From Candidatus Dormibacteria bacterium (GTDB lineage: Bacteria > Chloroflexota > Dormibacteria > Aeolococcales > Bog-877), in the NCBI GenBank assembly GCA_050734425.1, contig JBOHUL010000064.1:16683-80682 (forward strand): a stretch of 64,000 nucleotides of DNA. The letters run 5' to 3'. Below the pieces are notes generated by a model. The model was not told where the DNA came from and made no database searches. It saw only the letters and a program-made list of their open reading frames with translations. Position numbers and translations under genes: made by a program. Shown piece after piece: positions 3,189 to 20,121 of the stretch. Numbering within the stretch: position 1 is the first letter of the stretch; each line of letters opens with the position of its first letter.

Positions 3189-4289
3189 TCAGGAGGCCTG
3201 GGCGCTGGCCTCCACGACTGTGCCGCCATCGGACATGAGCTTGGTCGCCTCCTCCAGGGTCATGTCCTCTGAGGGCAGGACCACGTCGGAGGGCAGCAGC
3301 GAATCGTTGGGCAGCTTGCTGCCGTGGGCGCGGACGAAGTTGAGCATGGCGCCGAGGGCGCCGGTGTAGGCACCCTGGTCCTGGGAGTCGATCGCCTTGC
3401 CCAGGGCGTTGTCCAAGGGCTCCAACTGGGGGCGCTCCGCGATGCTGAGCCGGTATTGGTCCTCGCCTGAGATCCGAACCACCACGCTCGGGGCGCCGCC
3501 GTTGCCGGCTGGGGCCTGGGGGCTGGCCGCCTGGCTCTCTTCGGCGGCCGATTGGTTGGAGGAGGCGATCCGAGGTGCCGACTCGGGCGCTCCCAGCACC
3601 TCCTGCTTCAGCGCCGCCAGCTGGGCGTCGACCTGGGAGTCGGTGAGGTGCCCCTGCAGCTGGCGGTCGATGTCGTCGCCGGAGTTCAGCCCGATGGTGT
3701 CCAGGGTGCCGCTGTCCATCAGGGAGTCGATCGCCTGGGAGCGTGCCTGCATCTGCTGGGTCTTGTCCTGGGCCCGCTCGACCATGAGGTTGACGTCGGT
3801 CATCTGCTCCGAGAGGCCGGTCACGGCCTCTCCGATCTGGGTCGAGGCCTTGGCTGCCGAGTACTGGGCCTTGAGGGTCTCGCGCTGGGTCTTGAATGAA
3901 GCGACCTTGGCGGTCAGCTTCTGGGCGGTGACCTCCAGCTTCTGCTCTTGGTCTTTGAGCTGCTGGATCTGAGCCGTCATCGCGTCAGCCTGGGCCTTGG
4001 CATCCTGGGCCCGGGTCAAGGCCAGTCGCGCCAGGTCCTCACGGCCCTGCTGCAGCGCCAGCTTGGCCTGGGTCTGGCACTTGTCCTGCGTCTGCTGCAG
4101 CTGGGCCTGCTGCATCTCAAGGCGCTTCTCCGAAGTCAAAACCGTGGCCACGCTGGCCTTGACCTTGGAGAGAGCCTCCATCTGCTTCTGGTAGGAGAGG
4201 TCCAAGGCATCCATCGGGTTCTCGGCCCGGTCCATGACCTTGTTGGCCTTCTGCTGGAACAGGTCGGACATCCGGCGCATGATGCTCAT
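3189..4289 (-). CDS. pspA: PspA/IM30 family protein, paralog 2, with ~130-aa C-terminal extension
   Basis: MSIMRRMSDLFQQKANKVMDRAENPMDALDLSYQKQMEAL... is a classic PspA N-terminus and coiled coil. AAGGAG RBS lies upstream of the ATG. The C-terminal ~130 aa are non-coiled and of unknown fold. Confidence 0.8.
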   Translation of the reverse strand: MSIMRRMSDLFQQKANKVMDRAENPMDALDLSYQKQMEALSKVKASVATVLTSEKRLEMQQAQLQQTQDKCQTQAKLALQQGREDLARLALTRAQDAKAQADAMTAQIQQLKDQEQKLEVTAQKLTAKVASFKTQRETLKAQYSAAKASTQIGEAVTGLSEQMTDVNLMVERAQDKTQQMQARSQAIDSLMDSGTLDTIGLNSGDDIDRQLQGHLTDSQVDAQLAALKQEVLGAPESAPRIASSNQSAAEESQAASPQAPAGNGGAPSVVVRISGEDQYRLSIAERPQLEPLDNALGKAIDSQDQGAYTGALGAMLNFVRAHGSKLPNDSLLPSDVVLPSEDMTLEEATKLMSDGGTVVEASAQAS

Positions 4290-4404
4290 CTCGGTCTCCT
4301 TGCTCGGCGGTGGCGGCCCCGCGCCCCCAGCGGCCCAGCCCCGATCTTAGCGGCTGATCGAGCTCAACTCTGCCACATTAGTTGATGTCCTGCGAGGGCG
4401 TCGG

Positions 4405-4779
4405 TCACGCGAGACGGCGTCCTTTCATGCCCGGTCGATCCGGCCCTATCAGGACCACATCGGCGGGGTCATCCTCGGAGACAAGCCCTAGCACCAGGAC
4501 GTCGCTGCGATAACCGGCGATCCGGCGTGGCCCGAGGTTGACCGCCGCCAGCACCTCGCGCCCCTCCAGCTCCTCGGGTCGGTAGCGACGGGTCAGCTGG
4601 GCGCTGGACTGCAGCCGCCCGAGCCCCGGGCCGAAGTCGATCTCGAGCTTAATCGCCGGCCGCCGAGCTTCGGGGAAGTGCCGGGCTCGGACCACTACCC
4701 CGCAGCGGATGTCAATTCGTTCCCAGGCCCCGGCGGCGTCGGTCCCTACTGGCTCGTCCGGTCTGTTCATGGGGGCCAC
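4405..4779 (-). CDS. tRNA-binding (EMAP/CsaA-like) domain protein
   Basis: KLEIDFGPGLGRLQSSAQLT...EELEGREVLAAVNLGPRRIAGYRSDVLVLG resembles the CsaA/Trbp111 OB-fold tRNA-binding domain. Confidence 0.5.
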   Translation of the reverse strand: MAPMNRPDEPVGTDAAGAWERIDIRCGVVVRARHFPEARRPAIKLEIDFGPGLGRLQSSAQLTRRYRPEELEGREVLAAVNLGPRRIAGYRSDVLVLGLVSEDDPADVVLIGPDRPGMKGRRLA

Positions 4780-4843
4780 CCCCTCCTGGGTCGTGCTTTG
4801 CAGGGGCCCGGATGTCGATCGGGCCCTCGGTATACTCCGGCGC

Positions 4844-4926
4844 GGGCGGGTACCGAAGTGGTTAAACGGGGCTGACTGTAGATCAGCTGGCTCATGCCTA
4901 CGGGGGTTCGAATCCCTCCCCGCCCA
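4844..4926 (+). tRNA. tRNA-Tyr (anticodon GUA), type II with long variable arm; CCA not encoded
   Basis: Folded by hand: acceptor GGGCGGG/CCCGCCC, D arm, anticodon stem GCUGA/UCAGC with loop CUGUAGA, long variable hairpin GGC-ucau-GCC, T arm GGGGG-UUCGAAU-CCCUC. Coordinates +/-2. Confidence 0.8.
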
Positions 4927-4960
4927 GTGACTGGCGGCCCTACGCGCCTCGGCGCGGAGG

Positions 4961-5080
4961 ATGAGCGTCTACCTCGCCTCGGAGGAGACCGCCCACCTCG
5001 CCGCGATTGCCGAGCGCGAGCGGACGTCCCAGCCAGAGGTCAGTCACCGTGAGGTCCGGCTCCACGACCCGAACACAAGG
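4961..5080 (+). pseudogene. Possible ribbon-helix-helix (CopG/ParD-like) antitoxin-type gene fragment
   Basis: GGAGG RBS 4 nt before the ATG. The N-terminus MSVYLASEETAHLAAIAERERTSQPEVSHREVR fits the RHH pattern (beta strand, then helix A, then G/S turn, then helix B). The ORF then degenerates into low complexity and runs through tRNA-Thr, so it cannot be intact. No toxin partner was found. Confidence 0.25.
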
Positions 5081-5278
5081 GCAACCGCAGCGTCGCGCCC
5101 ATCGACATCGCCGAAGCTCGCGGCGCGTCGATCGCCGGCCTCCGCGACGACGCCTTGCTCGTGGGCCCTGCGGCTGCCACACTGCGGCGCAGCCGGGCCC
5201 CGTCGGATCTCAGTCCAGGGGAGCTGGCGCTCGGCCCCGCCCCGGGCTGGAGGGCGTCTCCATAATGACGCTCGGCAC

Positions 5279-5350
5279 GCCCAGGTAGCTCAGTGGCAGA
5301 GCGCTTCCTTGGTAAGGAAGAGGTCGCGGGTTCAATCCCCGCCCTGGGCT
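5279..5350 (+). tRNA. tRNA-Thr (anticodon GGU); CCA not encoded
   Basis: Hand fold: acceptor GCCCAGG/CCUGGGC, D arm GCUC-AGUGGCA-GAGC, anticodon stem CUUCC/GGAAG with loop UUGGUAA, T arm GCGGG-UUCAAUC-CCCGC. Confidence 0.8.
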
Positions 5351-5465
5351 CTTCTGATCTCAAGGCCACCACTTAGCTGGTAATGATGCACACCGCGACG
5401 TTGTCGGACCCGACCTCGCCGTCATTCGCCAAGAGCGCAGAGTCAGCTGGCGCGGAAACCCGCGC

Positions 5466-5911
5466 CTAGCTGTACCTCCCACGTAGGTTGTTGCCACGAG
5501 TCACTGGAGGGAGCCTGCCAACCGCGGTGTGGGCGCGGTGATAGTTGTAGCGGTGCACCCAGGCGGGGAGCACGCGGGTCCGGCTGCTGTTGCTGATGTA
5601 GGGGCGGAAGTAAGCCCACTCCTCGAGCAGGGGGCGGTTGAAGCGCTCCACGTTGCCGTTCAACTGGGGGTGGTAGCGGGGGGTGAGCAGCTGGCGGATC
5701 CGGAGCTCGGACAGTGCGTGCCGGAAGTCGTTGGAGATCCGGTAGGCCTTGGCGTTGTCGGACATCACCGCCCCCACCTGGATCCCCAGCCCCTGGTAGA
5801 ACTGCTACGCCCGGCGCAGGCAAGCCGCGCACGGGGTTGCTCGCGGTGCGCCTCCACGTAGGCCAGCTGGCGGTGGTCGTCCACGGCGCAGTGCAGGTAG
5901 TCGTAGCCCTG
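5466..5911 (-). mobile_element. IS481-family (rve/DDE) transposase, C-terminal half only, frameshifted; decayed IS
   Basis: Two minus-strand frames: ...GYDYLHCAVDDHRQLAYVEAH... and ...AKAYRISNDF...YHPQLNGNVERFNRPLLEEWAYFRPYISNSSRTRVLPAWVHRYNYHRAHTAVGRLPPVTRGNNLRGRYS match the integrase-core C-terminus of IS481 transposases. N-terminal HTH and the first part of the core are absent. Confidence 0.6.
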
Positions 5912-5977
5912 CCCCGTCGCGTGCGGTACCTGCCCTCGCCCCCGGACCGGACCCGGCCCCACTCCGGGCGCGGCCGA

Positions 5978-6376
5978 GTGGCAAGAACCGGAGCCCTGCT
6001 GCGCCCACTCATCGGGGAGGCGGCCTTCCGGGCCTGCGTCCGCACCCACTGGCTGCTGATCGCCCTGGCCGTGGCGGTGCCTCTGGGCCTGGCGGCGGCG
6101 TTTGCTGCCGCCCTCAGCTCCGGTGCTCTCCGGAGCGTGCTGGCGCTGGTCTGGCTGCTCTGCGCCCTCGCCTGTGTCATCGCCGCCTTCCTAGGTCTCA
6201 TCTGGAGCCGGCGGGCCAACGCCCTCACCAGCGACCGGCTCACCTCGCAGCTGGATACCCGCTTCGGATTCGGGGCGGGGGCGCGAGGCTCGATGTGGCG
6301 TCGTGGAAGCGCCAGATCGATCGGGCGCTGCGCCGCTATCGCCAGACCAACCGTCGCAGATGGCCTCACCAGGTAA
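5978..6376 (+). pseudogene. Small 2-TM membrane protein gene (paralog A), frameshifted; paralogous to 12246..12626
   Basis: GTG-initiated frame reads ...LLRPLIGEAAFRACVRTHW plus two hydrophobic helices. The C-terminal homology (RLDVASWKRQIDRALRRYRQTNRRRW) continues in a different frame (6295..), indicating a frameshift near 6290. The protein-level match to the intact minus-strand paralog is clear. Confidence 0.4.
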
Positions 6377-6529
6377 CGGGGACGGCCAGGCAGATCAGCG
6401 GCGGCCGGGGCAAGCGGGCGCAACCTCGCGCGCGACCCGGCCTGGGCACTTTGGCACATCTCGATCTGTCGTGCTCTGGCGATCCCTGCCCGCCCGCGCT
6501 AACCTGCCCTAGACATTTGAGGTCTGTCT

Positions 6530-9500
6530 TTGATTTGTAGCAATTGTCAGGCGGAGACGACTCCTGGGCGGCGGTTCTGCGGGCAGTGCGGAGCGCCCCT
6601 GGCTCATGCTTGTGCCGCCTGCGGGGCGGCCAACCCGCCGGGGGCGAGGTTCTGCGAAGAGTGCGGCACGTCGCTCCAGCCGGTCCCGGCGGCGACTCCC
6701 GCGCCCGCTGCGGCAGCACCGCCACCGGCGCCTGGCAGCGAGACCATCGAGCTCAGATTCGTCTCGGTCGCGTTCGCCGACCTGGTCGGGTTCACCACCC
6801 TCGCCGAGGGTCGGGACCCGGAGGAGGTCCGCGAGCTCCTGACACGCTATTTTGAAGTCGCCAGGGAGCTGGTCAGCCGTTACGGGGGGACGGTGGAGAA
6901 GTTCATCGGGGACGCGGTCATGGCGGTCTGGGGAACCCCCACCGCCCAGGAGGACGATGCCGAGCGCGCGGTCCGCGCCTCCCTGGACCTGGTCGAGGCG
7001 GTCGGCCAGCTGGGGCTGCAGATGGGCTTGCCCGGGCTCTCGGCCCGAGCGGGGGTGCTCAGCGGCACGGCTGCCGTGACCGTCGGGGCCAGGGGCCAGG
7101 GGATGGTAGCCGGGGACCTGGTCAACACCGCCTCGCGGATCCAGGGCCAGGGTGCACCGGGACAGGTCCTGGTCGGGGAGACCACCAAGCGGGCTACCGA
7201 GGCGGCGATCGCCTACCAGGAGCTGGGGACGAAGAGCCTCAAGGGCAAGGGCGAGCCGACCGCGCTCTTCCAGGCGCTGCGGGTGGTGGCGGGGCTCGGA
7301 GGGATGCTCAAGTCGCAGCGCCTGGAAGCCCCTTTCGTGGGCCGTGAACGAGAGCTCCGCCTGGTCAAGGAGGTCTTCCACACCTCGACCGAGGAGCGCC
7401 GCGCCCACCTGGTGCAGGTGACTGGGGTGGCCGGGATCGGCAAGTCCCGGCTCGGTTGGGAGTTCTTCAAGTACATCGACGGGCTCCAGTCCGGCTACCT
7501 GTGGCATCGGGGCCGCTGCCTGGCCTACGGCCAGGGCATCACCTACTTCGCGCTCGCCGAGATGGTGCGCGGGCGGCTCGGGATCGTGGAGCAGGACCCG
7601 CCCGAGGTCGAGCAGGCCAAGCTCACCGCGACCCTGGAGCAGTACCTCCACGACGCCGACGACCGCGCCTTCGTCGCTCCCCGCTTGGCCCACTTGATCG
7701 GGTTGGCGGAGCGAACCGCCCCCGACCAGCAGGATCTCTTCGCCGCCTGGCGGCTCTTCTTCGAACGCATGGCCGAGGACAGCCCGGTGGTTCTGGTCTT
7801 CGAGGACATGCAGTGGGCGGACTCGGCCCTGCTGGAGTTCATCACCTACCTGATGGAGTGGTCCCGGAACTTCCCCCTGTTCGTCATGAGCCTGGTCCGC
7901 CCTGAGACGGCTCAGGCGGGCCTCGGGGCAAGCACTCGAAACGCCACCCTGATCCACCTGGAGCCGCTGTCCCCCGGGGCGATGGAGCAACTGCTCACGG
8001 GACTGGTCCCGGGCATCCCCCGCCTTCTGGCGGAGCGGATCCAGCAGCGGGCCCAGGGCGTGCCCCTCTATGCGGTGGAGACGGTGCGGATGCTCCTCGA
8101 CCGGGGCTTGCTGGTCGAAGACGGAGCCGCCTACCGGCCGACGGCCGAAATCGAGACGCTGGAGGTCCCGGACACTCTCCAGGCGCTGATCCTGGCCCGG
8201 CTCGACGGGATGGAGCCCGCGGAGAGACAACTGGTCCAGGAGGCTTCCGTGCTGGGTAAAACCTTCACCCTCGAGACCCTGGCCCGACTCTCGGGCGACA
8301 CCCACCAGGTAGTTGGGGCGGTGCTGCATGCGCTGGTGGCCAAGGAGGTCCTGGCGATCCAGAGCGATCCCCGCTCTCCCGAGCGGGGCCGCTACGGCTT
8401 TCTCCAGGACCTGGTGCGGACGGTCGCCTACGAGACACTCTCCAAGCGGGATCGGCGGTCCAAGCACCTGGCGGTGGCGACCGTCCTGGAGGCTGCCGCC
8501 GGCGACTCCGAGGATCTGGTCGAGGAGCTGGCCTCGCACTATCTGCAGGCCTGGCGCCTGGACCCGGACTCTGACGACGGCGGCGAGATCCGAAGGAAGG
8601 CCCGACGGCTTCTGGTCCGAACCGCCGAGCGGGCCGCCCAGCGGGCGGCGGTCGATGAGGCCCACGCCGCCTTCCAACGGGCCTCAGAACTGAGCGAGTC
8701 GCCGCTGGAGCGCGGTGCCCTGACTGAGCGGGCGGGGCAGATGGCGGAGCAGAGCGGCCAGCTGGACGAGGCGGACCAGCTCTACGAGGAGGCGACGCGG
8801 CTGCTCAAGGAGGGAGGCGACCACCGCGGGGCCGCCAGAGCCCAGGCGCGGCTGGCGGGGTCGGAGTACCAGCGGCTGCAGGTGGAGCAGGCGACCAAGC
8901 GAATGCAGCATGCGTACGCGGAGATGGCGACAGACGATCCCGACCCCGACGTCGCCGTGGTCACGGCCCAGCTCGGTCGCTTCCTGGCGCTTCAGGGCGA
9001 TGCCGAAAAGGCAGCACCGCTGCTGGAGCGAGCCCTGCACCTGGCGGAGCTGCTGGAGCTGCCTGACGTCTACTCTCAGGCCTTGAGCAGCAAGGCGGTC
9101 GTTCTCATGGGCCAAGACCGGATGGACGAGGCAGTGGTGCTCCTGCGGCGGGCCCTAGAGGTGGCCCTGGAGCACAGCCTCACCTTGGCCGCCAACCGCG
9201 CCTACAACAACCTGGGAACGGTGCTGGAGGCCCAGGAGCGCTACTCGGAGTTGGTCACCATGCTCACCCAGCAACTTGAGTTCGCCCGTAGGGTCGGCGA
9301 CCGCCCCTGGGAGCTCAGCACCCTGCTGGCCCATGTGACACCGTTGATGGGGCTCGGGCAATGGGACGAGGCCGTGGCCATGGTCGCGGAGGCCCGGGCG
9401 ACCGAACTGCCCTTGGTGGCATTCGCATGGAGCCAACTGGTGAGCCTGGTTAGCCTCCACTGCCACAGGGGCGAACTGGACGAGGCCGAGAGGGTTTTGG

Positions 9501-10078
9501 AGGCGACGCGATCTGCCGCGGAGGCCGACGAGTGGCAGTCCCGCCTGGCCTATTCCGCGGAGAGGGGTGTCGCCCTGCGCGCCCACGGTCGGATCGAGGA
9601 GGCGCTGATGGCGGCGGAAGGGGTCCTGGCGAGCAAGAGCAAAGTGGGCATGGGGATTACCAATCCGATCTTGAAAAGGGCGCTGGTGCTGGCCGGCGAC
9701 TGTGCCATCGACCTTGCAGACCCCGACCGCGCATCAAGGATCCTGGCAACCGCCCGCGACGCCCTGCCAGGCCAGGTCACCCCTTGGCTGAGGGGTCATC
9801 TGGCCAGGCTCTCGGCCAGGGAGTGCGCCCTGCATGGCGACACCCAGCAGGTGGAGCCGCTGTTCACAGCGGCGGAAGCCGGGTTCGGGGCCATCGACGA
9901 CCCCTTCGACCTGGCGGCTACCCGGGTCGAGCATGCCGAGTGGTTGGTCGAGCAGGCAAGGTCAGACGAGGCCCTCCAGCTCCTCGCCGAAGCACGCACG
10001 ACCCTGGAGCGTCTGGGCGCCCAGCCGTGGCTGGAAAGAGTCAGGCAGATCAGGATCGAAGAACGCCTACCCGCGTGA
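6530..10078 (+). CDS. Multidomain signalling protein: N-terminal double zinc ribbon, class III adenylate/guanylate cyclase catalytic domain, STAND/AAA NTPase (P-loop GVAGIGKS), C-terminal TPR-like helical repeats; no HTH
   Basis: CSNCQ...CGQCG...CAACG...CEECG (four CxxC). Cyclase motifs FADLVGFT, FIGDAVMAVWG, GDLVNTASRIQ (metal Asp pair plus Asn/Arg transition-state residues). Walker A VTGVAGIGKSRL, Walker B-like VLVFEDMQWAD. About 600 aa of alpha-helical repeats. TTG start in a locally AT-rich patch. Confidence 0.8.
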   Translation: MICSNCQAETTPGRRFCGQCGAPLAHACAACGAANPPGARFCEECGTSLQPVPAATPAPAAAAPPPAPGSETIELRFVSVAFADLVGFTTLAEGRDPEEVRELLTRYFEVARELVSRYGGTVEKFIGDAVMAVWGTPTAQEDDAERAVRASLDLVEAVGQLGLQMGLPGLSARAGVLSGTAAVTVGARGQGMVAGDLVNTASRIQGQGAPGQVLVGETTKRATEAAIAYQELGTKSLKGKGEPTALFQALRVVAGLGGMLKSQRLEAPFVGRERELRLVKEVFHTSTEERRAHLVQVTGVAGIGKSRLGWEFFKYIDGLQSGYLWHRGRCLAYGQGITYFALAEMVRGRLGIVEQDPPEVEQAKLTATLEQYLHDADDRAFVAPRLAHLIGLAERTAPDQQDLFAAWRLFFERMAEDSPVVLVFEDMQWADSALLEFITYLMEWSRNFPLFVMSLVRPETAQAGLGASTRNATLIHLEPLSPGAMEQLLTGLVPGIPRLLAERIQQRAQGVPLYAVETVRMLLDRGLLVEDGAAYRPTAEIETLEVPDTLQALILARLDGMEPAERQLVQEASVLGKTFTLETLARLSGDTHQVVGAVLHALVAKEVLAIQSDPRSPERGRYGFLQDLVRTVAYETLSKRDRRSKHLAVATVLEAAAGDSEDLVEELASHYLQAWRLDPDSDDGGEIRRKARRLLVRTAERAAQRAAVDEAHAAFQRASELSESPLERGALTERAGQMAEQSGQLDEADQLYEEATRLLKEGGDHRGAARAQARLAGSEYQRLQVEQATKRMQHAYAEMATDDPDPDVAVVTAQLGRFLALQGDAEKAAPLLERALHLAELLELPDVYSQALSSKAVVLMGQDRMDEAVVLLRRALEVALEHSLTLAANRAYNNLGTVLEAQERYSELVTMLTQQLEFARRVGDRPWELSTLLAHVTPLMGLGQWDEAVAMVAEARATELPLVAFAWSQLVSLVSLHCHRGELDEAERVLEATRSAAEADEWQSRLAYSAERGVALRAHGRIEEALMAAEGVLASKSKVGMGITNPILKRALVLAGDCAIDLADPDRASRILATARDALPGQVTPWLRGHLARLSARECALHGDTQQVEPLFTAAEAGFGAIDDPFDLAATRVEHAEWLVEQARSDEALQLLAEARTTLERLGAQPWLERVRQIRIEERLPA

Positions 10079-10381
10079 GGGCGACGCCCTCCGCAGGCTG
10101 GGCCTCCCGGCCGGGCAGGCGCGCAGTGTCGGCGAGTTTGAGCCAGCGACCACGCGCCCGGGCCTACGGCGCCGCCCCGGATACCGTAGCTAGGCTCAAT
10201 CCCCCCTACACTTGCGGGGCAATGTGCTAGCGCTCTGCTGAAGGCGATCAAGGCCGGCCGTCGACTCTCCCCAGAGGTCGGCGCTGAGCCCGACCCGGTC
10301 GACGGAGTCGACCGAACCGCTATCGCCCCGCAGAGCCAGTCAGGTGGAGTCTTCGCCTCCGCCCTTATCGGGAGAGGTACA

Positions 10382-11620
10382 TTGCCAGCGCGCGCGCGTC
10401 CCAGCGATCTGACCTTGATCGTGCTCGCCTGCCTGTCCAGCGAGGCGAGCGGTGGGATCGCCGCCCTGGCCCTGGTGCTCCGGCTCAGCCAGACTGGCTC
10501 GAGCTGGGCGGTGGCCGGACTCTGGCTGGCGGGCACGGTCCCGGCAGTCGCGCTTGCCCCACTGATCGGGCTGCTTCTGGACCGGGTCGAGACGGTCGGG
10601 CTCCTGCGCAATCTCGCGATCGCCTCCGCCGTCCTCGTTGTGGGCCTGGCGGTGGTGCCCGGGGTGCTTCCCGTGCTGGCCCTGGCCGCCCTCCTGGGGA
10701 TCGCCGCCGCCACCACCGCGCCGGGCCTGCTGGCGATTGCCCCGGTGGTAGGAGGGGGCGCCGGCCCAGCCCGTTCCATGACCAGAATCCAGGCGGCACA
10801 GTGGGCGGGGTCGACGGTGGGTCCCGCAGTGGGCGCAGGTCTGGTCGTGGCTTGGGGTACCCGGATCCCACTTCTCCTCGACGCCGCATCCCTCCTGCTT
10901 CTGGTTGTGGCGCTCACGGCCGTCCGGGCGCGACGCTTGCCCACTCACCGCCCGTCGGGCGAGACCCGGACCAAGGCGATCACGGCTGGGCTGGCGATCC
11001 TCGCGGGCAATCGCGGTCTGCGCCGGCTACTGCCCCCAGTGCTCCTCGTGATCACCTTCGTCAACGTGGCGGTGGTGGTGGAGGTGTTCCTGGCCACCCA
11101 GGTATTCCGCGCCGGCCCCTGGGGCTACGGAGGTCTGGTGGCCCTTTGGGGCGGGGGGCTGGTGCTGGGAACCCTGACCGTGCCCCGGCTCGCGCGCCTC
11201 AACCCACTGCTGGTCGCCGGCGCGGGCGCCGGACTGGCGGCCCTGGGACTGGCCGGCGCTGGGCTCAGCCCCGGGCTCCCACCTGCCCTGCTCGCCTATC
11301 TGCTGGGCGGCTTTGGAAACGGGCTGGAGATGAACTCGGTGAGGATCATGGTTCAGAAAGTGGCGCCTGCGGCGACCCACGGACGCGCCTTCGCAGCCTA
11401 CTTCGCCCTGGGCAGCGGCGCAGCCGCGGTGGGATCAGGGTTGGGTGGCGGTCTCCTCGGAGTCTTCGCCGTCCGTCCGGCCATGCTGGTCGCGTCGCTG
11501 GCAGTGGCAATCGCCGCAATCTGGCTGCTGGCAGCGTCGTCCCTGTGGGCCGGGCTGCCCCTGCAGTCTGACTTCCCCGCAGAGGCCCTCGGTGTTCGAC
11601 TCCCGACCAATGGCAGTTGA
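10382..11620 (+). CDS. MFS transporter (EntS/MFS_1-like, ~12 TM)
   Basis: Hydrophobic 12-helix pattern with DRxE-like motif LLLDRVETVG after TM2. True start may lie downstream of 10382. Confidence 0.65.
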   Translation: MPARARPSDLTLIVLACLSSEASGGIAALALVLRLSQTGSSWAVAGLWLAGTVPAVALAPLIGLLLDRVETVGLLRNLAIASAVLVVGLAVVPGVLPVLALAALLGIAAATTAPGLLAIAPVVGGGAGPARSMTRIQAAQWAGSTVGPAVGAGLVVAWGTRIPLLLDAASLLLLVVALTAVRARRLPTHRPSGETRTKAITAGLAILAGNRGLRRLLPPVLLVITFVNVAVVVEVFLATQVFRAGPWGYGGLVALWGGGLVLGTLTVPRLARLNPLLVAGAGAGLAALGLAGAGLSPGLPPALLAYLLGGFGNGLEMNSVRIMVQKVAPAATHGRAFAAYFALGSGAAAVGSGLGGGLLGVFAVRPAMLVASLAVAIAAIWLLAASSLWAGLPLQSDFPAEALGVRLPTNGS

Positions 11621-11737
11621 GCGCCGCCTGCAAGGCCGAATGCTAGTACTGCGAGCCGAAAGCAGCTCGCCGGCTCCGAGGCCCCGGCCTAAGCTCGATT
11701 CGACGCCTCGCACGAGACAACTCATCTACGGGGTGCT

Positions 11738-11800
11738 GCAGCTAGCTGTACTTCCCACGTAGGTTGTTGACGCGACTCACTGGAGGGAGGCGTTCGTAGA
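11738..11800 (-). mobile_element. Solo terminal fragment (~60 bp: last transposase codons plus end) of the same IS481-family element as 5461..5515
   Basis: agctagctgtacTtcccacgtaggttgttgAcGcgaCtcactggagggag is ~90% identical over ~50 bp to 5463..5512. The short ORF 11742..11927 ends ...LPPVSRVNNLRGKYS, compared with ...LPPVTRGNNLRGRYS in the first copy. Confidence 0.5.
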
Positions 11801-11845
11801 CCAGGTAAAAGTCGGCCGGAGGAGGCCGCGACCAGGAGGGTTGCT

Positions 11846-12184
11846 GTGGCACGGTACCTGATCTCGTTCGACGACGGTGCGATGACCTTCCCCGAGGAGG
11901 ATCTGGCCGACGTGGACAAGGCCGCACACGGGGTGGTCCAGGAGGCCAAGGATGCGGGCGTATGGGTCTTCGGCGCCGGGCTAGAAAGTCAACGGGCCAG
12001 CGTCATTGCCACCGACGGGAGGGTCTCCGACGGCCCATACCCGGAGACCAAGGCGGTCCTCGGCGGCTTCGCCATCGTCGAGGTGCCCTCACGCGAGGAG
12101 GCGTGAGGGTGGGCCCCGACGATCGCCGTCGCCTGCCGCTGTGCGCAAGAGGTACGGGAGCTCCTGCACGACCGGACCGTGTGA
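11846..12184 (+). pseudogene. YciI-like (YCII-related) protein gene interrupted by an in-frame TGA at 12104..12106
   Basis: MARYLISFDDG...AGVWVFGAGLESQRASVIATDGRVSDGPYPETKAVLGGFAIVEVPSREEA matches the YciI family. After the TGA the same frame continues GWAPTIAVACRCAQEVRELL... to a stop at 12182..12184. That gives the normal ~112-aa length and a family-like C-terminus; a single nt change (TTG/CTG to TGA) would explain it. Confidence 0.45.
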
Positions 12185-12245
12185 TCGAAGGAGACCCGCA
12201 CCGCTGGAGTAACAGTTGCCAAGGCCGCGGGTTGGGCATGCAGCC

Positions 12246-12626
12246 TCAGCTCCAGTCCTGGAGTCGCCCACGGTTTCGCTCGAGCGCCTGATCGATGCGC
12301 CGCTTCCAGGTGGCGACGTCCAGCCGGGCCCGGCCACCGCGGACCACTAGTTGACGGCCGAGCCGGAGGCTGGCGGCCTGGCTGGCGAGTGCGTCGGCGC
12401 CGCGGGCACAGCCCCAGAGCACCACGATGGCGACGAGGGCGTAGAGGCAGCAGAGGGCCCAGAGCACGAGCAGCCCCGGACGGGCGGCCGACGGCGAGAA
12501 GGCCGCCACCAGGACCGCGGCCAGCCCCACGATCAGGCAAGGGATCAGGAGGCCGAGGCAGCGGTTGGCGCGGACGCAGCGGCGATAGGCCGCCTCGCCG
12601 ATCAACGGAACCAGCAGCGGACGCAC
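12246..12626 (-). CDS. Small 2-TM membrane protein (paralog B, intact), unknown function
   Basis: MRPLLVPLIGEAAYRRCVRANRCLGLLIPCLIVGLAAVLVAAF...DVATWKRRIDQALERNRGRLQDWS; paralogous to the frameshifted copy at 5978..6376. Confidence 0.5.
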   Translation of the reverse strand: MRPLLVPLIGEAAYRRCVRANRCLGLLIPCLIVGLAAVLVAAFSPSAARPGLLVLWALCCLYALVAIVVLWGCARGADALASQAASLRLGRQLVVRGGRARLDVATWKRRIDQALERNRGRLQDWS

Positions 12627-12801
12627 CCGCGCAGCCCGGCCCCGGGGCCGCCGTCGGGCCGATGAGGGGGGGTGATCTGGGGAGGGCAGAGCCTACGCTC
12701 GAAGTTGGGGACGACGCGGCGCACGGCTGACCATCTGTGAAAGTCTAGGCCCGGTTCGGCACCCCCGGTGGGGCGGATCCGGCGGGATTCGGGGCCTGGG
12801 T

Positions 12802-12830
12802 TTGACCCGCGTCCCGCGGGGGGATATACT
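12802..12830 (+). promoter_or_regulatory. Sigma-A type promoter candidate for rpmG (and possibly tRNA-Trp–secE–nusG): TTGACC-N17-TATACT
   Basis: TTGACC (12802-12807), 17-nt spacer, TATACT (12825-12830), ~50 nt upstream of the rpmG TTG start. A GC hairpin followed by a U-run lies in the leader. Confidence 0.4.
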
Positions 12831-12878
12831 CAGCCTGCTCGGCTCGCGGCCGGGCGTTTTTATTCTGGAGACTGGAAC

Positions 12879-13031
12879 TTGCCCGCGACCATCATCACCC
12901 TGCAGTGCAGTCAGTGCCAGGAGCGCAACTACACCACTCAAAAGAACAAGCGCAACGACCCCGACCGGTTGGAACTGAAGAAGTATTGCCGTCGCTGCCG
13001 TCGGCACACGGCGCACCGCGAGACCAAGTAG
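12879..13031 (+). CDS. rpmG: 50S ribosomal protein L33 (zinc-ribbon C4 form)
   Basis: TTG start with GGAG 8 nt upstream. ...[47 protein letters not shown]. The tool ORF (12768..) has a spurious N-terminal extension. Confidence 0.75.
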
Positions 13032-13051
13032 AGGCTTCCACCGAGACTCAA

Positions 13052-13124
13052 AGGGGCGTAGCTCAGCTGGTAGAGCAGCGGTCTCCAAAACCGCAGGTCG
13101 CGCGTTCGAACCGTGCCGCCCCTG
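13052..13124 (+). tRNA. tRNA-Trp (anticodon CCA)
   Basis: Hand fold: acceptor AGGGGCG/CGCCCCU, D arm GCUC-AGCUGGUA-GAGC, anticodon stem GCGGU/ACCGC with loop CUCCAAA, T arm GCGCG-UUCGAAC-CGUGC. It occupies the conserved position before secE. Confidence 0.8.
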
Positions 13125-13157
13125 CAGTCAGATGGGGAGAGCGCAAAGGAGTTGGAT

Positions 13158-13508
13158 TTGGCGAACGTCGCCCGGGGGGAGAGGTCCGAGGGGAGCGAGG
13201 GCAACTACCTCCAGGAGGTCTACGGCGAGTTGCGCAAGACCGTCTGGCCCACCTGGCCGGAGCTGCGCCAGATGACCGGCGTGGTGGTGGTGACGGTGGT
13301 GCTGCTGGGCGTCTTCCTCGGCCTCCTGGGATTTGGTCTCACGACGCTCTTCAAGCCCCTCTACACCACAGCCCCGGCCGCGGCCACCACGCCGGCCCCG
13401 GCCACGGTCACCCCGACTCCCACCGCCACGCCGACCCCGTCGGCCTCGGCCAGCGCCAGCCCCAGTGCGGGGGCCTCACCCAGCCCTTCGGCCACCACCA
13501 GTCCCTAG
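13158..13508 (+). CDS. secE: Preprotein translocase subunit SecE, with a Pro/Thr/Ala-rich C-terminal tail
   Basis: NYLQEVYGELRKTVWPTWPELRQMTGVVVVTVVLLGVFLGLLGFGL is the SecE signature plus a single TM helix. Probable TTG start at 13158 after an AAGGAG RBS. The tool ORF start (13113) overlaps tRNA-Trp. Confidence 0.7.
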   Translation: MANVARGERSEGSEGNYLQEVYGELRKTVWPTWPELRQMTGVVVVTVVLLGVFLGLLGFGLTTLFKPLYTTAPAAATTPAPATVTPTPTATPTPSASASASPSAGASPSPSATTSP

Positions 13509-13538
13509 ACCGACTATGCAGCGAGTAGGAGCCCACCA

Positions 13539-14099
13539 GTGAGCCCAGCCAAGACCAACACCGTGACCGAGCCCGCCAGCTGGTACGTCATCCACGCCTA
13601 TTCGGGGCACGAGGAGAAGGTCAAGGCCAACTTGTTGAAGCGAGTTGAGTCGATGGACATGCACGACCAGATCTTCGACGTCATGGTCCCGACGGAGGAC
13701 GTCATCGAGATCAAGGACGGCCAGCGCCGCCACGTCGCGAAGCGCATATTTCCCGGCTACATCATGGTGCAGATGGTTATGTCGGACGAGTCCTGGTACG
13801 TGGTGCGCAACACGCCCGGGGTGACGAGCTTCGTGGGCAGTGGCACCAGGCCGGTGCCGCTCCAGGAGGGCGAGGTGCGGGGGATCCTGCGCCAGGTCGA
13901 GCGTGAGCCCAGCGCCCGGGTCCAGGTGGAGTTCCAGGTGGGCGACTCGGTGCGGGTGGTGGACGGCCCCTTCACTGACTTCCACGGCAAGGTTGGGGAG
14001 ATCAACGCCGAAAAGGGCAAACTCAAGGTCATGGTCAACATGTTCGGGCGGGAGACGCCAGTGGAGCTCGACCTGCTCCAGGTCGAGCGGCTGCGCTAG
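13539..14099 (+). CDS. nusG: Transcription termination/antitermination factor NusG
   Basis: NGN and KOW domains: WYVIHAYSGHEEKVK...GDSVRVVDGPFTDFHGKVGEIN. Confidence 0.9.
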   Translation: MSPAKTNTVTEPASWYVIHAYSGHEEKVKANLLKRVESMDMHDQIFDVMVPTEDVIEIKDGQRRHVAKRIFPGYIMVQMVMSDESWYVVRNTPGVTSFVGSGTRPVPLQEGEVRGILRQVEREPSARVQVEFQVGDSVRVVDGPFTDFHGKVGEINAEKGKLKVMVNMFGRETPVELDLLQVERLR

Positions 14100-14112
14100 G
14101 AGGTAGCCGAAG

Positions 14113-14541
14113 GTGGGCAAGAAGAAGGTCAAGGCGGTCCTCCGCCTCAATGTCGAGGCCGGCAAGGCGACCCCCGGCTATCCGATCGGGCCCGCCCTGG
14201 GCCAGCACCAAGTGAACATCATGGAGTTCTGTCGCGCCTACAACGAGAAGACCCAGTCCCAGGCCGGGATGGTGATTCCGGCCGAGATCACCATCTTCGA
14301 GGACCGGAGCTTCACCTTCATAACCAAGACTCCGCCCACCAGTGACCTGATCAAAAAGGCGCTCGGGATCGAGAAGGGTTCCGCCAAGCCGCCGCGCGAG
14401 GAGGCTGGGGAACTGACCCGGGAGCAGGCCCTGGCCATCGCTAAGACCAAGATGCCGGACCTGAACGCCGCCGACCCGGAGGAGGCCCTGAAGATGGTGG
14501 AGGGCAGCGCCCGCTCCATGGGCGTCAAGGTAATTGGCTGA
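14113..14541 (+). CDS. rplK: 50S ribosomal protein L11
   Basis: [38 protein letters not shown]. Confidence 0.95.
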
Positions 14542-14601
14542 GCGGCTGAACAAGGTGGGAGGGCGCCTTGGGGCGTCCGTTGGGACCACTGGAGGACGAG
14601 G

Positions 14602-15312
14602 ATGAAGGGACACCACGGCAAGAAGTACCGGGCGGCGGCCGCGCTCCTGGAGGAGGACCGGCTCCACGACCCCAAAGAGGGCGTGCAACTGGTGCGTCAG
14701 GTGAACACCTCCCGCTTCCCGGGGACGGTTGAGCTACACGCCAGGCTGGGCGTAGATCCGCGCCATGCCGACCAGATGGTCCGGGGCAGCGTGGTCCTGC
14801 CCCACGGCACCGGCAGAACCCGGCGGATCCTGGTCTTCGCCCAGGGGGAGAAGGAGCGCGAGGCGCGGGACGCGGGGGCCGAGATAGTCGGTGGCGAGGA
14901 GTTGGTCAAGCGGGTCCAGGACGGCTTTCTCGACTTCGACGTAGCCCTGGCCACCCCGGACCTGATGGGGTCGGTGGGCCGGCTCGGCAAGATCCTCGGG
15001 CCCCGGGGCCTGATGCCCAACCCCAAGGCGGGGACGGTGACCTTCGACATCGCCAAGGCCATCCGTGACGTCCAGGCCGGGCGGGTGGAGTTTCGGGTCG
15101 ACCGCAACGGCATTGTGCACGTACCGCTTGGCAAGACCAGCTTCGAGGAGGAGGCGCTGCTGCAGAACCTCTCGGCGATGCTGGAGGCGATCGTCAAGGC
15201 CAAGCCCCAGGCCGCCAAGGGCACCTACATCCGGGCGGCTCACCTGGCCCCGTCAATGGGCCCCAGCGTCAAGTTGGACCCGCTCCAGGCGGCCCGGCTG
15301 AGCCCTTCCTGA
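14602..15312 (+). CDS. rplA: 50S ribosomal protein L1
   Basis: Typical L1 sequence and length, following rplK. Confidence 0.95.
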
Positions 15313-15464
15313 GGCCGGGGCCTTCTCGGCTATACTCGGCGGACCAATTTCGGGAACCCAAGACCGCAGGGGCAGCCGCCGCTCAAACCCGACCCTGCGC
15401 AGGTGACCTGAGCCGGCAGCGCCGCTGGCCCCCGGTTCCACCTGGCCCTTGGGATCGCGCCGCA

Positions 15465-16049
15465 GTGAGGAGGAGCGCCATGGGCCAGGTGGACCGCAGG
15501 GGGGCGGCGGTGGTCCCGCAGACCAAGCAGGACCAGGTGGCGGAGCTGGCCGAGAAGCTGGGCCGGATGCGCAGCGCGGTGCTGAGCGACTACCGCGGGC
15601 TCAGCGTCGCCGAGCTGGAGGAACTCCGATCTGGCTTCCGTGAGGCGGCGGTGGACTTCCTGGTGCTGAAGAACACCCTGGCCCGCCGCGCCGGAGAGAA
15701 GGCGGGGGTGCCCCAGCTGACCGACGCGCTGGTGGGCCCCAACGCCGTCGCCATCGGCTACGACGACCCGGCCCTACCAGCCCGGCTGCTGGTCGCCTAC
15801 GCCCGCGCCAACCGCCGCCCGGAGATGGTCCTGGGGGGCATCGCCGAGGGGCAGCTGCTCGGCCCCCAGGAGGTCCGTCAGCTGGCGGAGCTGCCCTCGC
15901 GCGAGGTTTTGATGGCGCAGCTGCTGGGCGTGGTGGAGTCGGCCGTGGGCCAGCTGGTGCAGTTGCTGGAGAGTCCGGTGCGAGACCTGGTGGGTCTTCT
16001 GGAGGCGAAGGCCCAGGCTACACCGGAGGCGCCGGCCCGGAGCGGCTGA
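15465..16049 (+). CDS. rplJ: 50S ribosomal protein L10
   Basis: L10 family. The internal ATG ~15 nt downstream, preceded by GGAGGAG, is the more likely start. There is a ~150-nt leader after rplA. Confidence 0.9.
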   Translation: MRRSAMGQVDRRGAAVVPQTKQDQVAELAEKLGRMRSAVLSDYRGLSVAELEELRSGFREAAVDFLVLKNTLARRAGEKAGVPQLTDALVGPNAVAIGYDDPALPARLLVAYARANRRPEMVLGGIAEGQLLGPQEVRQLAELPSREVLMAQLLGVVESAVGQLVQLLESPVRDLVGLLEAKAQATPEAPARSG

Positions 16050-16087
16050 GCTGGATCAATCCGAGCTAGGCATGGAGGTGTGAGTCA

Positions 16088-16468
16088 ATGGCCAAGGTGA
16101 GCGTGGACGACTTCGTCGAGGCGCTGGGGTCCTGGACGGTCCTGGATCTTGTGAACGCCAAGAAGAAGATCGAAGAGACCTATGGCATCACCGCCGCCGC
16201 GCCGGTGGCCGTGGCGGCCCAGGCCCCGGCGCAGGGGGAGGCGGCGGAGGAGGAGCAGACCGAGTTCTCGGTGATCCTGACCGCTGCCGGGGACCAGAAG
16301 ATCGCCGCCATCAAGGCGGTGCGGGAGATCACGGGGCTGGGCCTGAAGGAGGCCAAGGACGTGGTCGACGGGGCCCCCAAGCCGGTCAAGGAAGGCGTGA
16401 CTCGGGACGAGGCCGAGGCGGTGTTGAAGAAGATCCAGGAGGTGGGCGCCGCGGGCGAGATCAAGTAG
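16088..16468 (+). CDS. rplL: 50S ribosomal protein L7/L12
   Basis: Ala-rich hinge plus C-terminal domain ...[39 protein letters not shown]. Confidence 0.95.
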
Positions 16469-16551
16469 CTGGGGCAGGTGGTCCGGCCCCGGTTCGGGGC
16501 GGGGGCGGTTCGGCGGATGTGGTAAGATCGCCGTTCCGCCACCTGTGAAGT

Positions 16552-19500
16552 TTGCGTACGTCCGCGCCTGCCGGGAGAACTTTTAGAGCTATGCCCTCTT
16601 TTCCTGCTGCCTTGCCCGCCGTGCCCCAACGCCTCAGCTTCGGGACGATCTCCGAGATGCTGGACGTGGGCAACCTGATTGAGACCCAGCTCAATTCGTT
16701 TGGCTGGTTCGTCAGCTCAGGCCTGCGGGAGCTCTTCGATGAGATCAACCCCATCACCGACTACACCGGCAAGAACTACGAGCTCAGGTTCCTTGACTAC
16801 AGCTTCGGCCAGCCCAAGTTCGACCAGGAGGAGTGCCGCAACCGGGACATGACTTTCGCCGCGCCGCTGCGGATCATGACCCGGCTGCATATCAAGACCG
16901 GGGAGAACGCCGGCGAGATCAAGGAGTCCGAGGTGTATCTGGGCGACTTCCCAATGATGACCGAGCAGGGCACCTTCCTGGTCAACGGCACCGAGCGGGT
17001 GGTGGTGAGTCAGCTGGTGCGCTCGCCTGGGGTCTACTTCACCGCCGGCCCCGAGCACCCGGTCACGGGGAGGCCGTTGTACGCGGTCAAGTTCATCCCC
17101 AACCGGGGGGCCTGGCTGGAGATCGAAACCTCGACCAAGGACGTGCTCACGGCCAAGATCGACCGCAAGCGCAAGTTCCAGGCCACCACCTTGATCCGGG
17201 CCCTGGGCTATCCCAGCGACGATGACATCCGTCACTTCTTCCAGGACGTCGACACCGACCCCGAGCACCGCTACATCGACGCCACCCTAGAGAAGGACCC
17301 CAGCCACGACGTCAACGAGGCCCTGGTCGAGCTCTACCGCAAGATCCGCCCGGGCGACCCCCCGACCGTGGAGAACGCCCGCAACCTCCTGCAGGCGCTC
17401 TTCTTCAATCCCCGGCGCTTCGACCTGGGGCGGGTGGGCCGGTTCAAGCTGGACAAGCGCCTGGGGCTGCCCGAGGCCGAGGCCCGGCGCCGGGCGGAGG
17501 AGCACGAGCTGCGGGTTCTGGCCCACGAGGACTTCATCAACATCATCCGCCGCCTGGTGCAGCTCAACAACGGCGAGGGCGAGCAGGACGACATCGATCA
17601 CCTGGGCAACCGCCGGGTCCGAGCGGTGGGCGAGCTGCTGCAAAACCAGTTCCGCACTGGCCTGCTGCGGATGGAACGCATCATCAAGGAGCGGATGACC
17701 ATCTGCGACGCCACCACGGTCACGGCGGCCTCGTTGATAAACGCCCGCCCGGTGGTGGCGGCCATCAAGGAGTTCTTTGGCTCAAGCCAGCTCTCCCAGT
17801 TCATGGACCAGACCAATCCCCTGTCGGAGCTGACCCACAAGCGCCGGCTCTCGGCGCTGGGGCCCGGCGGGCTCTCGCGGGAGCGGGCGGGGATGGTCGT
17901 CCGAGACGTCCACCGGAGCCACTACGGCCGCATCTGCCCGATCGAGACCCCAGAGGGACCCAACATCGGGCTCATGGGCTCACTCGCCACCTTCGCCAGG
18001 GTCAACGACTTCGGCTTCATCGAGACCCCGTTCCGCCGCGTCTACCACGAGCTAGATTTGGGGCGGGAGCAGGGACTGCTCGAGGGCAGGGTGCTGGCGG
18101 CGGCCGCCGGTGGCCTCAAGGCCGGGGCGACCCTCGACGCCAAGGCGCTGAAGCAGCTGGAGAAGGCCGACCTGAGCAAGGTGCAGATCCGCCCCTGGGT
18201 CAGCGGGGAGATCAAGTTTCTCTCCGCCGACGAGGAGGACAAGTACACCGTGGCTCAGGCCAACGCCCCAGTGTCGGAGGCGGGCGACTTCCTCGTCAGC
18301 CACACGCCTGCCCGGACCCGGCACACCTTCAAGGACGTGCCCGTGGCCGAGGTGGACTGGGTCGACGTCTCCCCCAAGCAGACCGTCTCGGTGGCGACGG
18401 CGATGATCCCCTTCCTGGAGCATGACGACGCCAACCGGGCGTTGATGGGCTCCAACATGCAGCGACAGGCGGTTCCCCTGCTCCGGACCGACTCGCCCGT
18501 GGTGGGAACCGGGATGGAGGGCTATGCCGCCAAGGACAGCGGCGAGCTGATCGTCGCCGCCAGCCCGGGGACCGTCCTGGGGGTGAACGTGCCCATCCAG
18601 GAGATCAACCAGGACAAGGTCCAGGTGGTGCGCTCGGGTCAGGACACTGGCCTCGGCATCCTCTTCCGGCCCGATGGGAGAGGACCCGATGTCTGGTACG
18701 GGGTGCACAAGTTCGTCCGCAGCAACCAGGGCACCTGTCTCAGCCAGCGGATCGTGGTCTCACCGGGGGAGCACCTGGACACTGGTGCGGTCATGGCCGA
18801 CGGTCCCTCGACGGATCGGGGTGAGTTGGCCCTGGGCCAGAACGTGCTGGTGGCTTTCATGCCCTGGGAGGGCTACAACTACGAGGACGCCATCCTAATC
18901 AGCGAGTCCGTGGTCCGGGAGGACAAGTACACCTCGATCCACATCGAGGAGTTCGAGGTCGAGGTGCGCGACACCAGGCTCGGCGCCGAGGAGGTGACGA
19001 GGGAGCTTCCCAACGTGGGCGAGGAGAGCCTGCGCAACCTCGACGAGCGTGGCATCGTCTATGTCGGTGCCGAGGTCGCCTCCGGCGACATCCTCGTCGG
19101 TAAGACCACCCCCAAGGGGGAGTCGGAGCTCTCCGCCGAGGAGCGACTCCTCCGCGCCATCTTCGGGGAGAAGTCGAAGGAGGTCCGCGACAGCTCCCTG
19201 CGCGTGCCCCACGGCGAGCGGGGAGTGGTGGTCGACGTGAAGACGTTCAGCCGCTCCAACAAGGACGAGCTGCCCGCCGGCGTGGAGGAGTTGATCCGGA
19301 TCTACGTCGCCCAGAAGCGCAAGATCAGCGAAGGCGACAAGATGGCGGGCCGCCACGGCAACAAGGGGGTCATCGCCCGGATCCTCCCGATCGAAGACCT
19401 CCCCTTCCTTCCCGATGGGACTCCGGTCGAGATCGTCCTCAACCCCCTCGGCGTGCCCAGCCGCATGAATCTGGGCCAGGTGCTGGAAACCCATCTCGGA

Positions 19501-20121
19501 TGGGCGGCTAAGGCCCTGGGGCTGAAGGTCGCTACGCCGGTGTTCGACGGCGCCTCCGAGGCCCAGATCGAAGACGAGCTGGAGCGGGCGGGTCTGCCGC
19601 GAGACGGCAAGGTCTGGCTCCGTGACGGCCGCTCAGGGGAGACCTTCGACCAGCCGGTGACGGTGGGGATCATCTACATGATGAAGCTGGCCCACCTGGT
19701 GGAGGACAAGATCCACGCCCGCAGCACCGGGCCCTACAGCCTGGTCACCCAGCAGCCGCTGGGAGGGAAGGCCCAGTTCGGCGGGCAGCGGTTCGGTGAG
19801 ATGGAGGTCTGGGCCCTGGAGGCCTACGGCGCCAGCCACATCCTCCAGGAAATCCTGACCATCAAGTCGGACGACATCGTCGGTCGGGTCAAGGCCTACG
19901 AGGCCATCGTCAAGGGCGACAACACCCTGGATGCCAGCATCCCCGAGTCTTTCCGGGTCCTGGTCAAGGAGCTGGAAGGGCTGGCGCTCGGGGTCGAGAT
20001 CATGTCCGAGAACGAGGAGCAGATCGTATTCACAGAGGACGACATGCCCGACATGCCGCTGAGCCTCGGAATCAACCTGGAGCGCGACGAGCGCGACGAC
20101 GCCGAGGACATCAGCAGGTAG
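16552..20121 (+). CDS. rpoB: DNA-directed RNA polymerase subunit beta
   Basis: Full-length RpoB homology. Likely start at the in-frame ATG 16591 (MPSFPAAL...). Confidence 0.95.

Follow-up and report, generated by a model that had tools for sequence, protein, structure and literature searches.

What separates two blocks of conserved genes that are neighbors in genome after genome, and how did it come to be there? We address this question for one locus in the uncultured phylum Candidatus Dormibacterota, using a stretch of 64,000 nucleotides (nt), here called the window, from GCA_050734425.1, the assembly of a soil bacterium of Candidatus Dormibacteria (contig JBOHUL010000064.1, positions 16,683 to 80,682 of the forward strand). 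Between a gene for tRNA-Thr and the region upstream of rpmG, the gene for ribosomal protein L33, lies DNA without conservation that runs from position 5352 to about 12,794 of the window. We argue that this interval is probably the form taken here by a plasticity zone of long standing that belongs to one clade of Dormibacteria. That is, its structure looks like cumulative turnover and rearrangement between two conserved anchors, not like one decayed integration.

The anchors themselves are easily described. To the left, the order infB-rbfA-DHH-truB-ribF-psp-M48-pspAB-pspAA-tRNA_bind-tRNA-Tyr-tRNA-Thr is conserved in relatives (tRNA_bind adjoins tRNA-Tyr in the loci L086, L088, L089 and L093); in the window the conserved block ends with tRNA-Tyr(GTA) at 4844-4926, and tRNA-Thr(GGT) at 5279-5351 is the left anchor of the variable interval, both on the plus strand and both found by ARAGORN and Rfam. 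To the right, the order rpmG-tRNA-Trp-secE-nusG-rplK is kept in related loci wherever their sequence reaches. In the window, rpmG (12879-13031, with a TTG start) was recognized from its sequence, by tblastn and through Pfam Ribosomal_L33 on its orthologs, and it is followed, on the same plus strand, by tRNA-Trp (13052-13125; ARAGORN, Rfam), secE (13158-13508) and nusG (13539-14099). The L33 proteins of relatives are 88-92% identical to the window's product (tblastn), and by DNA conservation the right block begins about 80 nt upstream of the gene: from about 12,795 rightward the window is 80-86% identical to L002-L015 in blastn, and left of that point there is no match. The conserved upstream region is thus 12795-12878 (plus strand). 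At the other edge, nonconserved DNA starts at 5352, immediately 3' of tRNA-Thr.

The relatives' loci, designated here by L numbers, were gathered by a scan for NusG with one genome taken per species, which yielded 80 loci, most of them labeled Candidatus Dormibacterota (also Dormibacteraeota or Dormibacteria), the others carrying other labels and the same locus. The rpmG gene is present in 76, and 14 of the 76 either have more than 9 kb upstream without a tRNA-Thr or have an interval that could be measured in full. Contigs with the left block were found via homologs of the tRNA_bind and PspA-like proteins. All of the sequences compared are contigs of metagenome-assembled genomes (MAGs) or of metagenomes. 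The closest of them, a 26-kb MAG contig from GCA_974104925.1, aligns colinearly with positions 3539-20005 of the window; the identity is 99.79%, with 34 substitutions and 0 indels.

In at least five genomes, the window included, both anchor blocks lie on one contig and in the same relative orientation, and in these five the gene content between them is mostly different from one genome to the next. The shortest interval, 6.2 kb in L089, holds a 160-aa gene, a PIN/RHH pair, PQQ and RibD_C; the window's own is 7.5 kb. The contig of L085 and L020 has 12.1 kb with BNR, another gene of the major facilitator superfamily (MFS), HTH/AHSA1, AstE, DAO and ADH. There follow 15.4 kb in L095, which is the whole contig of L010, with GtrA, the mem gene introduced below, Pyr_redox, cNMP_binding, the cyc gene likewise described below, MarR, a hydrolase, SnoaL and MerR, and 20.7 kb on the contig of L007 and L088. 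With the two anchors linked across genomes and the content between them differing, the anchors are therefore best regarded as ancestral neighbors in this clade, separated by a zone that varies. An empty site is found in none of the other four linked genomes, all of which hold 6.2-20.7 kb between the anchors, and an interval that is occupied in every linked relative speaks against any recent splitting of a contiguous locus.

Such a splitting was what a sequence-only reading of this DNA had proposed, on the model of actinobacterial genomes in which these tRNA genes, rpmG and secE-nusG are contiguous. The host belongs to Dormibacterota, so that the actinobacterial template is the wrong baseline, and in no relative examined does tRNA-Thr abut rpmG on the same strand. 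Upstream of rpmG, tRNA-Thr was absent from the captured sequence of the 30 loci whose NusG identity is 83% or higher (10 of the 30 extend for at least 9 kb); at a stricter level of at least 88% NusG identity, 0 of 14 loci had it in their captured upstream sequence, 5 of the 14 reaching 9 kb or more in that direction. Nine loci of a more distant clade have a tRNA-Thr(GGT) only 129-175 nt from rpmG, on the opposite strand. The tRNA-Met that the same reading had missed is indeed absent, both from the window (ARAGORN) and from 4000-14500 (Rfam), and it is equally absent from every related locus; ARAGORN finds only tRNA-Tyr, tRNA-Thr and tRNA-Trp in the 64-kb window, and the Rfam scan of 4000-14500 gives three tRNAs and nothing else. 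Other parts of that reading have held up well. The anatomy that it listed (the tRNA genes, two IS481 ends, two copies of a small membrane protein gene, a cyclase gene, an MFS gene, a YciI gene with a stop, and rpmG) is present with coordinates correct to within 1 nt; the segment is accessory, being nonconserved between blocks that are linked in relatives and carrying different cargo in each of them; and the signs of decay (IS481 scraps, a frameshift in one membrane protein gene, a stop in YciI) are real, the stop being polymorphic between strains.

Does the interval bear the marks of an integrated island? We find no integrase gene or remnant in it: Pfam on the open reading frames (ORFs) of the interval shows no recombinase beyond the rve_3 domain of IS481, and tblastn of the integrase, FtsK, SSB and GntR proteins of L086 against the window gives no match. 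Nor is there an attachment (att)-like repeat, since the 21-nt pattern of the tRNA-Thr 3' end, with up to three mismatches allowed, occurs in the whole window only in the tRNA itself, and blastn-short with tRNA-Thr and 90 nt more as the query returns, over the whole window, matches of 10-14 nt at chance level, none of them near 12.6-12.9 kb. The interval has a GC fraction of 0.698, compared with 0.687 in the remainder of the window, and the tetranucleotide distance of the interval ranks 20th among 57 windows of equal size. Codon scores of 0.34 (cyc), 0.29 (MFS), 0.28 (YciI) and 0.43 (memB) are within the spread shown by the other genes of the window (mean 0.41, sd 0.09, range 0.18-0.60). Taken with the GC3 frames (GC at third codon positions), these measures show no deviation of the interval from its flanks. 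Of the four marks that one would look for in an island (integrase, att site, composition and empty site), the interval shows none, and it shows both of those of a plasticity zone, namely flanks linked in several genomes and a content that varies among related ones.

That is not to say that the site is a quiet one. In relatives, tyrosine-integrase elements sit directly 3' of tRNA-Thr(GGT), and the site is therefore an integration hot spot there. The clearest case is L086 (JBOHUG010000010.1, 1-6473), where a tyrosine integrase at 5256-6209 lies directly 3' of a minus-strand tRNA-Thr(GGT) at 6400-6473 that is nearly identical to the window's. The integrase is followed by GntR, an 88-aa gene, SSB, FtsK/SpoIIIE, a 385-aa gene and PIN; the set of integrase, GntR, SSB and FtsK/SpoIIIE is one that we take to resemble the actinomycete integrative conjugative elements (AICEs). 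The far att site of this element is not within the captured contig, its far end lying beyond it. Homologs of the L086 integrase are also found 3' of minus-strand tRNA-Thr(GGT) genes in L074 (2366-3159; tblastn E 2e-13) and L037 (6857-7192; E 7e-8), both of which belong to the distant clade in which tRNA-Thr lies 129-175 nt from rpmG.

The contents of the window's interval are of three kinds, the first being genes that have family members in the same interval of relatives. The small membrane protein gene, which we call mem, is present twice and in inverted orientation: memB (12246-12626, minus strand; defined by homologs and alignment) is intact, and memA (5978 to about 6426, plus strand) is a pseudogene in which a 1-nt deletion near 6255 shifts the frame. 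Once its frame is corrected, memA shares 45% identity with memB and 34-45% with the mem proteins of relatives. The family has about 125 aa, two transmembrane (TM) segments and the motif LVPLIGExAFxxCVR ... GYPIRIRGxGGxLDVxxWKRxIDRAL; it matches nothing in Pfam, NCBIfam or PADLOC, and it is uncharacterized. In eight of the closest relatives (L002-L008 and L010), a mem homolog precedes rpmG by 1.5-5.7 kb, on the minus strand, and memB matches these genes in position and orientation.

The second such gene, cyc (6530-10078, plus strand), encodes 1182 aa with, according to Pfam, an N-terminal double zinc ribbon (DZR) followed by Guanylate_cyc (E 2e-22), AAA_16, a STAND-type NTPase domain (E 2e-21), and TPR (E 1.5e-18). 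By the order of these domains, the product is predicted to be a class III cyclase-STAND-TPR signaling protein. Homologs with 61-65% identity occur inside the interval in L003, L004, L010/L095 and L093, all four on the strand opposite to that of the window's cyc and all four adjoining a Pyr_redox gene that is absent from the window. The family is very large in Dormibacterota, with more than 8000 matches at E<1e-50 and several copies per genome; in a neighbor-joining tree, the group to which the interval copies belong has the window's cyc as its deepest branch. That cyc has long resided in the zone, and was inverted in the window's lineage, is a reasonable inference. Two other ideas about this gene were tried and dropped: PADLOC gives generic matches to a cyclase domain (PycC) and to TPR with no system context, which leaves nothing for a defense reading to stand on, and a conserved cassette of cyc and MFS is contradicted by L095, where cyc has no MFS gene beside it, and by L100, where the MFS gene next to cyc is not homologous to the window's. 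As a separate observation, a gene with a cNMP_binding domain adjoins the cyc homologs of L095 (8427-9422) and L096 (13627-14046), the latter locus also holding a second cyc paralog; the window's cyc has no such neighbor.

Genes of the second kind are peculiar to the lineage. The MFS transporter (10382-11620, plus strand, 412 aa; Pfam MFS_1/MFS_3, NCBIfam TIGR00900 below its cut-off) and the YciI-like gene (11846-12184, plus strand; Pfam YCII) lack homologs at the related loci, of which about 100 were compared. A metagenome scan gave just two relatives of the MFS protein, at 64% identity, in unrelated contexts and one of them fragmented. In the window assembly, YciI is interrupted by a TGA at 12104-12106; the 99.79%-identical MAG contig has TTA (Leu) at this codon and hence an intact gene of 112 aa, and the in-frame stop is a strain polymorphism. 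Of the 34 single-nucleotide polymorphisms (SNPs) between the two assemblies, 10 fall within 170 nt in YciI (11949-12116), which would happen by chance with a probability of about 5e-10, and six of these ten are nonsynonymous, the TGA/TTA difference among them. Gene conversion from a YciI paralog was considered as the cause of this cluster and set aside, there being no paralog in the window to act as donor.

The third kind consists of the scars of an insertion sequence (IS) of the IS481 family. Remnant 1 (5466 to about 5960, minus strand; Pfam rve_3, the NCBIfam IS481 model and frame analysis) retains a DDHxxLAY motif, after which come a stop, a frameshift and an rve_3 C terminus; it corresponds to positions 145-283 of the 284 of NCBIfam transpos_IS481 NF033577 (E 1.5e-35), that is, to the C-terminal half of the transposase and nothing of the N-terminal half. 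Its score of 123 bits falls below the full-length cut-off of 224 bits because only half of the protein remains. Its outer IS end lies at 5466, and its other edge lies about 18 nt upstream of the start codon of memA. Remnant 2 (11742-11789, minus strand) consists of this IS end alone, 48 nt that run in the same direction as 5466-5513 and differ from it at 4 of 48 positions (92% identity as a repeat family; blastn E 4.6e-13). Truncation has removed the same side from each copy, leaving only the inner end of the right-hand one, and neither has an intact transposase ORF. Among the window's repeats there is no inverted partner end, only the same IS end surviving in both copies; the sequences that flank the two ends are unrelated to each other, and no target-site duplication was found. 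Neither the 64-kb window nor any of the related loci contains an intact copy of the element, and no counterpart of the remnants themselves occurs across the related loci, about 100 in number.

How might all of this have been put together? We envisage a zone whose left border is the tRNA-Tyr/tRNA-Thr pair closing the infB-truB-ribF-psp-tRNA_bind block and whose right border is the promoter region of rpmG-tRNA-Trp-secE-nusG. The two anchors are conserved and remain linked, but what lies between them turns over. Relatives have gained elements with an integrase at the tRNA-Thr 3' end, as well as toxin-antitoxin pairs and a variety of metabolic and regulatory genes. The window's version is probably a mosaic of resident genes (mem, and cyc directly behind memA), genes peculiar to the lineage whose composition is native (MFS and YciI) and IS481 scars. 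A zone with mem and cyc in it probably predates the divergence of these species. In the window's lineage, a unit of memA and cyc could then have come to the plus orientation, memB being the second mem copy in its usual place beside rpmG; MFS and YciI may have been gained, two IS481 copies may have inserted and later been truncated by deletions, and memA may then have decayed through its 1-nt deletion. That IS481 took part in the rearrangement, and that the events occurred in this order, is what we would infer from the arrangement of the pieces.

Three other histories deserve a hearing. In one, a single integrative element entered at the 3' end of tRNA-Thr and split a contiguous tRNA-Thr–rpmG locus, after which its integrase and att sites were lost and its composition ameliorated. 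The segment does start 1 nt after tRNA-Thr, exactly where L086 (with its AICE-like set), L074 and L037 carry tyrosine-integrase elements; it shows signatures of decay; its MFS gene, YciI gene and IS481 remnants are absent from relatives; and the distant clade has tRNA-Thr within 129-175 nt of rpmG. We nevertheless think this history unlikely. The distant tRNA-Thr is on the opposite strand, all of the linked relatives are occupied with no empty site seen, and the traces that the sequence-only reading had looked to for this history, namely a departure of GC and codon usage from those of the flanks and a direct repeat of the tRNA-Thr 3' end at the right border, are both missing, as is any remnant of an integrase. 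That reading had also allowed that finding the same genes in the interval of relatives would count against it. This is what we see for mem and cyc, whose family members lie in the same interval of relatives, so that at least half of the segment would predate the lineage; it is not what we see for MFS, YciI and the IS481 remnants, which are not shared. The claim of one old integration is, in short, the part of the sequence-only reading that we would give up.

In another history, IS481 was the vehicle, and the 6.2-kb unit of memA, cyc and MFS was brought in or flipped as something like a composite transposon between direct IS481 copies. The appeal is plain enough, the same IS end occurring twice (at 5466 and 11742), in direct orientation, and bracketing exactly memA-cyc-MFS, with remnant 1 ending about 18 nt before the memA start codon; moreover, cyc is inverted relative to four relatives, and members of its group occupy different chromosomal sites in other genomes, which indicates that the gene relocates. 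With both copies truncated on the same side and the right one reduced to its inner end, however, no outer end of a composite survives; neither a target-site duplication nor an inverted partner end was found; and 4 of 48 positions differ between the two ends, with no intact copy in the 64-kb window or the related loci. We regard this history, too, as improbable. Finally, the whole arrangement might be a MAG chimera in which the tRNA block and the rpmG block were joined through repeated IS sequence, a thought encouraged by contigs from the same population that end at tRNA-Thr (L084) or in the spacer between tRNA-Tyr and tRNA-Thr (L083) and by other MAGs that break at the tRNA pair. The IS481 remnants are short and diverged, not repeats of the sort on which an assembly collapses, and an artefact is hardly credible because the second assembly, GCA_974104925.1, is colinear over 3539-20005 at 99.79% identity with no indels and because the same blocks are linked in four other genomes.

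The plasticity zone that we prefer has its own weak points, and these should be set down together. The evidence consists of MAG contigs throughout, and the window assembly and the 99.8%-identical contig may not be independent of each other. The arrangement in the distant clade may reflect a compact ancestral state deep in the phylum. The mem proteins of relatives are only 31-45% identical to the window's copies. Close cyc members, at 65-67% identity, sit elsewhere in L094, L096 and L100, and the case for treating the window's cyc as an ortholog of the interval copies, and with it the case for an inversion, depends on co-location and an unsupported neighbor-joining tree.

The kind of feature is well known, and no new element or mechanism is revealed by it. 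With regions of genomic plasticity, or flexible genomic islets, the interval shares conserved and linked flanks, a content and length that vary (6.2-20.7 kb), scars of mobile elements, pseudogenes, toxin-antitoxin pairs and transporters, and a tendency of MAG assemblies to break at its edge. It differs from them in its semiconserved, though rearranged, content (mem and cyc, with Pyr_redox and GtrA in relatives), and the zone is therefore not purely strain-specific cargo. With tRNA-targeted islands and integrative conjugative elements such as the AICEs, it shares its place 3' of a tRNA gene, the same tRNA-Thr(GGT) that serves tyrosine integrases in relatives, but the window's segment lacks their integrase, att repeat and compositional signature, and relatives show no empty site. 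As for IS481-family elements and the composite units that they can form, remnant 1 fits the C-terminal half of the IS481 model and two like ends bracket three genes, but both copies are truncated pseudo-elements for which no pair of inverted repeats, target-site duplication or intact copy was found.

Mycobacteria offer the other obvious comparison. There the locus reads tyrT-thrT-metT-rpmG2-(hadABC)-trpT-secE-nusG, and the window resembles it in having tRNA-Tyr, tRNA-Thr ... rpmG, tRNA-Trp, secE and nusG in this order on one strand. Dormibacterota differ in being another phylum, in having no tRNA-Met at any of the related loci and in the gap of 6-21 kb between tRNA-Thr and rpmG in the linked relatives, and the actinobacterial synteny template does not transfer to them. 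The mycobacterial Rv0386-type cyclase-ATPase proteins are likewise the usual comparison for class III cyclase-AAA_16-TPR proteins; the window's cyc has Guanylate_cyc, AAA_16 and TPR in the same order, and it differs by its N-terminal double zinc ribbon and by the absence of a C-terminal LuxR-type helix-turn-helix. Searches of the literature on Dormibacterota mobile elements and on rpmG2/hadA/tRNA turned up nothing on the tRNA-Thr–rpmG locus.

What is gained, then, is one plasticity zone that is defined by position, with conserved anchors, for an uncultured phylum. It should be useful for quality control of MAGs, whose contigs break there, and in the search for integrative elements, because tyrosine integrases use tRNA-Thr(GGT) in at least three genomes. 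One can also imagine a bolder version, which we consider doubtful: that the tRNA-Tyr/Thr–rpmG interval is a clade-wide hot spot, fixed in position, where AICE-like tyrosine-integrase elements land repeatedly at tRNA-Thr(GGT), and, in addition, the home of a semiconserved signaling pair close to rpmG (the 2-TM mem and the zinc-ribbon cyclase-STAND-TPR protein, with its cNMP-binding partner in relatives) that is functionally tied to rpmG-secE-nusG.

A few observations on the neighborhood remain. The two tRNA genes of the left anchor abut, with 0 nt between them, in L088, L089, L093 and L095; in the window, a lineage-specific spacer of 352 nt (4927-5278), which matches near-identical strains only, lies between them. 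This spacer has coding-like GC3 periodicity in the frame of an ORF that begins at 4961 and that has no family match in Pfam, NCBIfam or PADLOC, and it may be the remnant of another small insertion. Tblastx of short intergenic pieces against all loci gave high-GC noise only. In L085 (9877-10508), the pair of tRNA_bind and tRNA-Tyr is locally inverted relative to the window, tRNA_bind lying between tRNA-Tyr on the minus strand and tRNA-Thr on the plus strand. Several independent MAG or metagenome contigs (L084, L090, L091, L092 and L095) end at or inside the tRNA-Tyr/tRNA-Thr pair. Among short contigs of the same population as the window, L084 stops exactly at tRNA-Thr and L083 inside the spacer. 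Ends of this sort are consistent with strain-level heterogeneity of the adjoining interval.

On the right-hand side, the locus L007 has a 1.6-kb insertion (8013-9684) between tRNA-Trp and secE with a Glyoxalase_6 gene (Pfam E 1.5e-29); a fragment in it, LGHCSIAITARTYAEV, resembles the C terminus of a tyrosine recombinase by eye only, and Pfam did not confirm the likeness. The window's SecE, finally, ends in a C-terminal tail rich in Pro, Thr, Ala and Ser (13340-13508), encoded in part by a 24-nt tandem repeat at 13364-13411, and the matches to the SecE proteins of relatives end before this tail.

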